From a virus, in IMG/VR virus record IMGVR_UViG_3300037264_005839: a stretch of 64,000 bases of DNA, one strand, 5' to 3'. The translations under genes were made by a program, and so were the position numbers. Positions within the stretch are counted from its first letter, which is position 1. The number at the start of each line of letters is the position of its first letter. This document shows positions 9,932-10,639 of this stretch, piece after piece. The notes beneath the pieces were generated by a model. The model was not told where the DNA came from. It did no database searches and saw only the letters and a program-made list of their open reading frames with translations.

Positions 9932-10639
9932 ATGAGCCGCGTCGAAGAAGACGGGTCGCAGTACCCAGAGGGACCCGTGGATTTGGTGCACGTGGGGCCC
10001 CCAGGAGAGCCTCTCTCCTCGTTCCTGATGCTCTATCACTACGCGGGGGGCATCTTCCCTCTGGGGATGCAACACGAGCGGCATCTGTGGTGGTCCCTTG
10101 AGCCGCGGGCCGTTCTCCAGACGAACCAAGTCAAGGTGAACCGGACACTCCGCAAGGTGATCCGTCGAGGCGACTATGTGGTCCGGGCCGACACGGCCTT
10201 CGATGCCGTCGTGGAACTGTGCCGTCTCACCCGTCAGACGGATGATGGGCCGGGATCGTGGATCACCGACGAGTATGTGCGCGTCTTCAGGACGCTGCAC
10301 AGGCTCGGACACGCCCACAGCATTGAGACTTGGCGGGGGGATCAACTGGCCGGTGGCCTTTTCGGGGTTGCCATGGGCCAAATGTTCTATGGCTGCTCGA
10401 TGTTCCGGCTCCAGCCGAACGCCTCCAAAGTGGCCTTGGTGGCGCTTGCACGGCAGTTGGATGCTTGGGGGTTCCCCCTCGTCGATTGCCAGATCCACAA
10501 TCCTCACTTGGGCCGCATGGGCGCACGCCTCATCCCTCGCATGCGCTTCCACGAGGTCGTGCGGAGCCTTGTACGTGGAAAACGCAGGGTTGGCTCTTGG
10601 GCCGATCAATTCCAAGCGCCGGGCGCCGCATCGTTTTGA
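9932..10639 (+). CDS. aat: leucyl/phenylalanyl-tRNA--protein transferase
   Basis: 235 aa; conserved L/F-transferase blocks [91 protein letters not shown]. Confidence 0.8.
   Translation: [235 protein letters not shown]

Follow-up and report, generated by a model that had tools for sequence, protein, structure and literature searches.

The subject of this report is a gene in a stretch of 64,000 nucleotides (the window) from the virus record IMGVR_UViG_3300037264_005839 of IMG/VR. The gene occupies positions 9932-10639 of the + strand and encodes a 235-residue protein related to the bacterial leucyl/phenylalanyl-tRNA-protein transferase (Aat, or L/F-transferase), an enzyme that transfers Leu or Phe onto N-terminal Arg or Lys to give a product that is degraded via ClpS/ClpAP. 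The comparisons presented here confirm that the product of 9932-10639 is a genuine member of the Aat family and place it, to judge from its sequence, in a conserved viral clade that is set apart from cellular Aats by a change at one near-invariant active-site residue. The features of the gene on which the argument depends are as follows.

9932-10639, + strand: aat-like gene (stop codon included) for the 235-residue protein of the L/F-transferase family, from the ATG-to-stop open reading frame, the profile matches, and the structural model
10139-10168, + strand: codons of the basic tRNA-docking cluster, equivalent to Arg76, Arg80, Lys83, and Arg84 of Escherichia coli Aat, from the alignment
10394-10396, + strand: codon TGC for Cys155, at the site of E. 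coli Glu156 in the motif GESMF (here GCSMF), from the alignment
10484-10492, + strand: codons of Asp185-Cys186-Gln187, equivalent to E. coli Asp186-Cys187-Gln188 with the proposed proton-relay pair, from the alignment

The Aat Gene, Its Fold, and Its Functional Residues

An initial annotation, made from the DNA letters and their translations, had identified a 235-residue Aat at this locus, and the open reading frame, the family profiles, the phmmer comparison, and the predicted fold all agree with it. The Pfam profile PF03588 (Leu_Phe_trans), which that annotation had proposed as a check, matches the protein with a score of 203.6 bits (threshold 22.7; E 2e-60) over profile positions 4-171 of 171, and the NCBIfam equivalog model TIGR00667 ("aat") does so with 182.8 bits (cutoff 143.55). 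In phmmer comparisons the E. coli L/F-transferase chains 2z3k, 2cxa, and 2dps are matched at E ∼2e-41. An AlphaFold (AF2) model, for which 36 members of the clade served as input, has a predicted local distance difference test score (pLDDT) of 90.5, and Foldseek aligns it with the same three E. coli structures at template modeling (TM) scores of 0.79-0.82 and a root mean square deviation (rmsd) of 1.7-1.8 Å over ∼205 columns with 38% identity. As modeled, the protein superposes on the solved L/F-transferase structures and, like them, consists of two domains, of which the C-terminal one is GNAT-like.

The Joint Genome Institute (JGI) pipeline had already labeled the gene as Aat, with a shorter product of 203 residues. 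The first 32 residues of the 235-residue form are conserved in 35 homologues, with Gly8, Gln10, Asp17, and Leu18 invariant, and are modeled at a pLDDT of ∼89; because these additional residues are both conserved in the clade and confidently modeled, the longer form, initiated at the upstream ATG, is supported. An antisense open reading frame of 322 residues (9647-10615) on the opposite strand was rejected as a shadow frame of the high-GC aat sequence. A scan for sigma-70 promoters around the gene gave zero sites, and terminator-like sites were uninformative.

The residues that we take to form the pocket for the Leu or Phe side chain of the donor in E. coli Aat, Met144, Met158, Leu170, Phe173, and Ile185, correspond in the window protein to Leu143, Met157, Leu, Leu, and Val, a set that is near-identical to that of the nearest cellular homologues, in which the last position is Ile. 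Because the hydrophobic character of the pocket is retained, Leu or Phe is still the likely donor. The initial annotation had named substitution of the catalytic Asp and Gln as grounds for giving up its assignment; the pair is intact, Asp185 and Gln187 being equivalent to E. coli Asp186 and Gln188, and Asn190 (E. coli Asn191) is retained in the alignment as well (the roles of these three residues are summarized in bioRxiv 10.1101/2022.07.20.500667). The cluster Arg76/Arg80/Lys83/Arg84, defined as tRNA-docking in PMC4105747, is present as Arg, Lys, Arg, and Arg.

The resemblance to the E. coli enzyme therefore extends from family membership (PF03588 and TIGR00667) and the two-domain fold (TM ∼0.8, rmsd 1.7 Å, 38% identity) to Asp186, Gln188, Asn191, Trp111, Met158, the donor pocket, and the basic cluster, all of which are conserved in the window protein. 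The differences are Cys for Glu156, Leu for Trp49, a stretch of ∼30 residues at the N terminus that is specific to the clade (MSxVEEDGxQxP..VDLVR), and the probable location of the gene on a huge-phage genome and not on a chromosome. The earlier statement that all of the conserved blocks of the family are reproduced consequently has to be qualified: the three blocks quoted in its support are present verbatim (residues 53-62, 128-158, and 185-193, the last being DCQIHNPHL), but GESMF reads GCSMF, and Trp49 is replaced by Leu. Overall, the window protein is 37-50% identical to cellular Aats.

The Phage-type Clade and the Residue at Position 156

A search of 5.8 billion proteins for homologues of the window Aat returned a phage-type set of ∼45 clusters, found in metagenomes only, whose members are 221-251 residues long, are 46-100% identical to the query, and cover it in full, including the N terminus. 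Cellular Aats rank behind this set, with at most ∼52% identity and 81-93% coverage of the query. In a neighbor-joining tree all of the phage-type Aats form one clade nested among the cellular Aats, in which the basal members have Glu156 and the crown has Cys156, and the tree shows a single origin of the phage clade from a cellular Aat. Gene neighborhoods are phage-like for three crown members (P0002, P0015, and P0035) and one basal member (P0049), and the nearest cellular-type protein (P0044) is flanked by SpoIID, glycosyltransferase, and sulfatase genes. The closest cellular relatives that carry a name are Gammaproteobacteria (Natronospira, Pseudoxanthomonas, and Lysobacter) and a metagenome-assembled genome (MAG) of the Acidobacteria. 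The ratio of nonsynonymous to synonymous substitution rates (dN/dS) for aat is 0.08 relative to an 80%-identical orthologue and 0.16-0.30 relative to others, for which dS is saturated; because of these low values (0.08-0.30) the gene is regarded as maintained by selection, and at the codon level the phage aat is shown to be under strong purifying selection.

The position of Glu156 is the sole column within the catalytic core that discriminates the clade. None of the 80 close cellular homologues (25 of 25 when these are made non-redundant) departs from Glu at this site, and Glu is also found in 148 of a set of 152 diverse Aats, most of them representatives chosen by clustering at 50%; the four others are the window Aat, a crown-clade representative (P0014), a fragment (P0245), and P0288. 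This level of conservation is comparable with that of Asp186 (149), Gln188 (147), and Met158 (149) in the same set. In the crown clade the residue is Cys in 38 of 40 members, with Ala and Tyr in one each, and the three basal phage-type Aats have kept Glu.

Glu156 lies two residues ahead of the pocket residue Met158 in the sequence and is predicted to be on strand β4 of the GNAT domain, where it would face Asp186 and Gln188 of the neighboring strand. The general base of many GNAT enzymes is found at this β4 position. Because Glu156 would adjoin Met158 on β4, opposite Asp186 and Gln188, a Cys variant is expected to differ from bacterial Aat, and the substitution suggests that the difference may be one of acceptor preference or of catalytic chemistry.

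These observations bear on a simpler account, in which the gene is a plain auxiliary copy that has the specificity of bacterial Aat (Leu or Phe onto N-terminal Arg or Lys) and boosts the flux through the host N-degron pathway, the exchange of Glu156 for Cys being neutral. Much of the protein would fit such a role: its identity with cellular Aat is 37-50%, it passes the cutoff of the TIGR00667 equivalog, all of the other mapped functional residues are conserved, and the basal phage members still have Glu156. However, neutrality is unlikely at a site that is near-invariant throughout the family and is then fixed as Cys across a crown whose members are only ∼50% identical to one another, and we consider this account unlikely.

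Neighboring Genes and the Viral Setting

The genes that surround aat, together with that for initiation factor 3 (IF3), are the following.

5808-6809, + strand: metallophosphoesterase (PF00149, phrog_1649), with a paralogue at 17500-18252
7293-8699, + strand: RtcB RNA ligase (PF01139, 286.9 bits), 80-86% identical in sister contigs
9245-9892, + strand: 215-residue protein with a nucleotidyltransferase fold, the upstream neighbor of Aat, 62-73% identical in sister contigs
12152-13099, + strand: FHA-domain protein, convergent with the sigma-like gene
13077-13946, − strand: sigma-70 region-4/helix-turn-helix (HTH) protein (PF08281, PF04545)
16559-17500, + strand: Thg1-like tRNA-His guanylyltransferase (PF04446, 96.7 bits; phrog_4717, E 2.2e-87)
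53032-53550, − strand: full-length IF3 homologue with IF3_N and IF3_C domains (phrog_9787, E 9e-45), a factor reported for other huge phages

The initial annotation placed aat between RtcB and Thg1 and viewed the region as a tRNA-centered functional island. The order is correct but the spacing is loose: 1.2 kb and two genes separate aat from the end of RtcB upstream, and 5.9 kb and about ten genes separate it from the start of Thg1 downstream. As to the island, a module of RtcB and the nucleotidyltransferase-fold protein is real, but Aat is not part of it elsewhere: no Aat was found within 10 kb of the RtcB/nucleotidyltransferase loci in any of 80 bacterial loci, and in the basal phage locus (L013) the 10 kb upstream of Aat contain neither RtcB nor the nucleotidyltransferase. 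Aat thus adjoins the RNA-repair module only in this phage lineage, and the two are neighbors by position. The steadiest neighbors of Aat across the phage lineage are the FHA protein and the sigma-70 region-4/HTH protein, and the sigma-like gene is downstream of Aat in five loci (L003, L005, L007, L010, and the basal L013).

The 215-residue protein gave zero matches in Pfam, NCBIfam, and PHROG. It has an invariant motif, SGGWAWH...HDH.D.D, and an AF2 model with a pLDDT of 90.3, for which the best folds in the Protein Data Bank are the MenT1 toxin (8an4), LnuA, and JHP933 at modest TM scores of 0.40-0.51; MenT1 is a tRNA-modifying toxin. In bacteria ranging from Nannocystaceae to Flavobacteriia, RtcB is immediately followed by a gene of this family in 35 of the 72 loci that could be examined, and because of this pairing the two genes are regarded as a conserved module, the 215-residue family having the appearance of an undescribed RNA-repair partner associated with RtcB. 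The window protein has a zinc ribbon-like insertion with four Cys residues (approximately residues 107-128) that most of its relatives are without. The only GenBank phage records with a relative of it are LR756501 and LR756503, which are from uncultured phage and 735 kb long; the 735-kb phage was rejected as a close relative of the window, as it has a GC content of 31% and only the nucleotidyltransferase in common.

Two side observations concern the genes on either side of aat. The window RtcB shares 78% identity with its counterpart in Nannocystaceae (Myxococcota, GC 0.68-0.69; L017-L019), nearly as close as to that of sister phage contigs, which points to recent gene exchange and hints that the host of the phage may be myxobacterial. 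In the closest sister contig (L003, 11141-12991), a gene for a protein with an RNB (RNase II/R) domain and a double-stranded RNA-binding domain is inserted directly downstream of Aat; that contig has as its FHA homologue a short open reading frame of 133 residues without a Pfam match to FHA. For genes of RNA processing this region is a hot spot.

The window has a GC content of 61% and contains ∼90 genes, which are for the most part small and without a family match; from 1 to 45 kb they are largely co-directional. The recognizable genes are an auxiliary set typical of huge phages and include those for RNA metabolism and translation (RtcB, Thg1, IF3, and sigma-like proteins), for nucleotide metabolism and DNA repair (DHFR, dCMP deaminase, endonuclease V (EndoV), and an AlkB-like oxygenase), and for Sir2, two NUDIX proteins, CinA, an HD phosphohydrolase, LemA/TPM, SPFH, and R2K ATP-grasp proteins. 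Both IF3 and genes for the ligation of cleaved tRNAs have been described in huge phages (PMC7162821). Scans of the window for tRNA, transfer-messenger RNA, and Rfam families were empty, and megablast of positions 1-25000 against 50,697 GenBank phage records found zero close relatives.

Several genes in other parts of the window are recorded here as side observations. A Sir2-family protein (48352-49263, − strand), a LemA and TPM-domain pair (51566-52213 and 52182-53006, both + strand), and a 612-residue SPFH/Band-7 protein (28018-29856, + strand) are membrane- or NAD-related proteins of the sort known from defense or stress systems. A 426-residue open reading frame (33558-34838, + strand) has a NUDIX domain joined to one that resembles nucleoside 2-deoxyribosyltransferases. 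An open reading frame of 2074 residues (56953-63177, − strand) is without a Pfam or PHROG match and has as its sole hit a weak one, in the 485-kb uncultured phage LR745208; it is possibly structural, and a pattern search for it in IMG/VR found nothing.

The gene order is part of the evidence that the window is viral. The succession of metallophosphoesterase, RtcB, the 215-residue protein, Aat, the FHA protein, the sigma-like gene (opposite strand), Thg1, metallophosphoesterase, CinA, NUDIX, AlkB-like, and EndoV recurs on contigs of many independent metagenomes and also on two IMG/VR viral contigs, namely UViG_3300022719_000283 (618,736 bp) and one of 60 kb. The identities to the proteins of UViG_3300022719_000283 are 81% for RtcB, 65% for the 215-residue protein, 54% for Aat, 66% for Thg1, and 72% for an upstream 415-residue protein that resembles a virion structural protein. 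When 185,579 GTDB species genomes were scanned with the 215-residue family as the query, 250 relatives were obtained, and the best 80 of the 250 loci, which were compared with the window, have only RtcB and the 215-residue protein in common with it.

The initial annotation had regarded a demonstration that the window is host chromosome as fatal to its proposal. In such a case the window would be a segment of the chromosome or a megaplasmid of a bacterium not yet sampled, with aat as one of its housekeeping genes. The failure to find capsid, portal, or terminase genes in 64 kb fits that explanation, as does the frequency of FHA and sigma-like genes in the Myxococcota, the source of the 78%-identical RtcB; in addition, the window itself was not found in the IMG/VR set that was searched. 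The gene order shared with the 618-kb viral contig argues against it, however, and so do the large number of genes without a family match, a complement that is free of housekeeping, rRNA, and tRNA genes, the restriction of the GenBank phage relatives of the nucleotidyltransferase to the 735-kb records, and the absence of the lineage from the GTDB genomes save for the two-gene module. We therefore judge a non-viral source improbable and take the window to be very probably a piece of a huge phage, with a gene order that is that of an IMG/VR viral contig and that is nearly absent from GTDB genomes.

The doubt that is left about this assignment comes from the hallmark genes: scans of the ∼90 open reading frames in the 64-kb window with Pfam and PHROG recognized none for capsid, portal, or terminase. 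The nearest approach is a weak match to phrog_10356 ("virion structural," E 1e-14) at 3452-4699. Two matches to the "portal" family phrog_15528 in a batch screen could be traced to none of 29 open reading frames that were scanned individually and are not relied on, and a match to phrog_1383 in the batch screen, the position of which was not found in the scans of individual frames, is not used.

Comparison with Other Transferases and Interpretation

A tblastn search with Aat of the GenBank phage records (50,697) gave seven matches, five of them genuine; RtcB and Thg1 matched 513 and 162 records, respectively, as against seven for Aat. The earlier impression that Aat is rare in viral genomes is thus borne out, and the five genuine examples, which are the jumbo phages PhiXhv-12, PhiXhv-15, PhiXhv-16, Ep026, and Ep032 of Xanthomonas and Erwinia (∼228 kb), are all divergent. 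They are the only genuine GenBank phage records with an Aat-family gene, which in PhiXhv-12, -15, and -16 is annotated as "leucyl/phenylalanyl-tRNA--protein transferase." Unlike the window Aat, to which they are ∼29% identical, these proteins have VDSMF, with Asp at position 156, and D-M-E instead of D-C-Q, and their genes are in another neighborhood with neither RtcB nor Thg1 nearby; they are clearly a separate acquisition. Two records under the name "Acinetobacter phage MD-2021a" (CAKLQH020000030.1, which is L012, and CAKLQF020000028.1) were rejected as phage Aats, being contigs of bacterial chromosome with ftsK, trxB, aat, bpt (arginyl-tRNA-protein transferase), rimI, and tufA, and it should be noted that such records inflate counts of "phage" Aats. 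A giant-virus MAG (L002, IMGVR_UViG_GVMAG-M-3300005613-26_000001; 276 kb, GC 0.21) has a weak Aat-like match, 28% identical over residues 146-209.

Bacterial Bpt and eukaryotic ATE1 share with the window Aat a GNAT-like aminoacyl-tRNA transferase fold and the addition of an N-terminal residue that makes a degron, but they are only distant structural matches (TM ∼0.4, 8-10% identity) and differ in donor and acceptor specificity. A phage-encoded enzyme of GNAT fold that takes an activated amino acid from a host aminoacyl-tRNA is known in the Mom protein of phage Mu, which carries out a Gly-tRNA-dependent modification of adenine in DNA (PMC13219725). The acceptor of Mom is double-stranded DNA, and the protein belongs to another branch of the GNAT superfamily; its bearing here is confined to the precedent that it sets for unusual acceptors.

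The explanation that we prefer, with a probability of about 0.5, is that the gene encodes a functional Aat-family aminoacyl-tRNA-protein transferase of a very large, uncultivated, high-GC phage lineage, which would make N-degrons and in which Cys155 would alter the acceptor or the chemistry. During infection, host Leu-tRNA or Phe-tRNA would supply the enzyme with the Leu or Phe that it adds to free protein N termini, and the resulting leucylated or phenylalanylated N termini would be N-degrons recognized by ClpS and destroyed by host ClpAP. The initial annotation had suggested that host or defense proteins might be the targets. An altered acceptor range or chemistry, conferred by Cys155, would explain why the phage has its own copy instead of using the host enzyme.

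A number of points weigh against this explanation. No genes for ClpS, ClpA, or ClpP are present in the window or the sister loci. The proposed tie of Glu156 to acceptor binding or catalysis is drawn from its position and from analogy with the general base of GNAT enzymes. Trp49, which is Leu in the window protein, is Trp in all 80 of the closest cellular homologues and in 119 of the 152 wider representatives; furthermore, one phage subclade combines Q188A with H193Y and one member has D186A (these variants being among P0012, P0014, P0016, P0022, P0030, P0031, and P0036). Because of these three departures, part of the phage clade may be catalytically relaxed, differently arranged, or losing activity. 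Finally, the missing hallmark genes discussed above bear on the assignment to a phage.

The same departures can be taken further, to a decoy or inhibitor: an Aat weakened by the loss of Glu156 and Trp49 might bind Leu- or Phe-tRNA or the precursors of N-degrons, block the host pathway, and so protect phage proteins, and the Q188A and D186A variants within the clade are in keeping with such a role. Nevertheless, purifying selection acts on Asp185, Gln187, the donor pocket, and the tRNA-docking cluster, as is expected of an active enzyme, and we regard a decoy as very improbable.

A different extension starts from Cys155 itself, which might redirect transfer to non-basic N termini or a non-protein acceptor, or might act as a thioester carrier of the aminoacyl group, and thereby create a new counter-defense or modification activity. 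The clade-wide change from Glu to Cys at the β4 position is consistent with this, the Mom reaction on DNA adenine (PMC13219725) offers an analogy, and the fold neighbors of the Aat model include FemX, MprF, and aminoacyl-tRNA-dependent peptide synthases. Yet, apart from Cys155, the protein is a very ordinary Aat, with an rmsd of 1.7 Å to the E. coli enzyme and no new domain or insertion, and we think a wholesale change of activity decidedly unlikely. A version confined to the crown clade, in which the exchange of Glu156 for Cys would have opened the enzyme to other N termini, such as those of defense or host proteins without N-terminal Arg or Lys, or would have allowed Cys155 to pass a thioester-linked residue to a new kind of acceptor, is likewise speculative and rather doubtful; if true, it would give these phages a private tRNA-fueled tagging activity, a tool for counter-defense or host takeover.

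To our knowledge, few physiological substrates of the N-degron pathway in bacteria have been described, and the pathway has no established role in phage infection; in the searchable literature we found no paper that ties Aat, ClpS, or N-degrons to phage infection. The preferred explanation, that of an active N-degron-forming transferase with an altered acceptor or chemistry, would add a consumer of aminoacyl-tRNA to the set of translation and tRNA functions, already a rich one, that huge phages possess. A lineage of such phages keeps Aat under purifying selection with one of the most conserved residues of the family changed, and its enzyme offers an entry point to the questions of whether a virus rewrites the stability of host proteins by N-terminal aminoacylation and of what residue 156 contributes to acceptor choice or catalysis in the Aat family.

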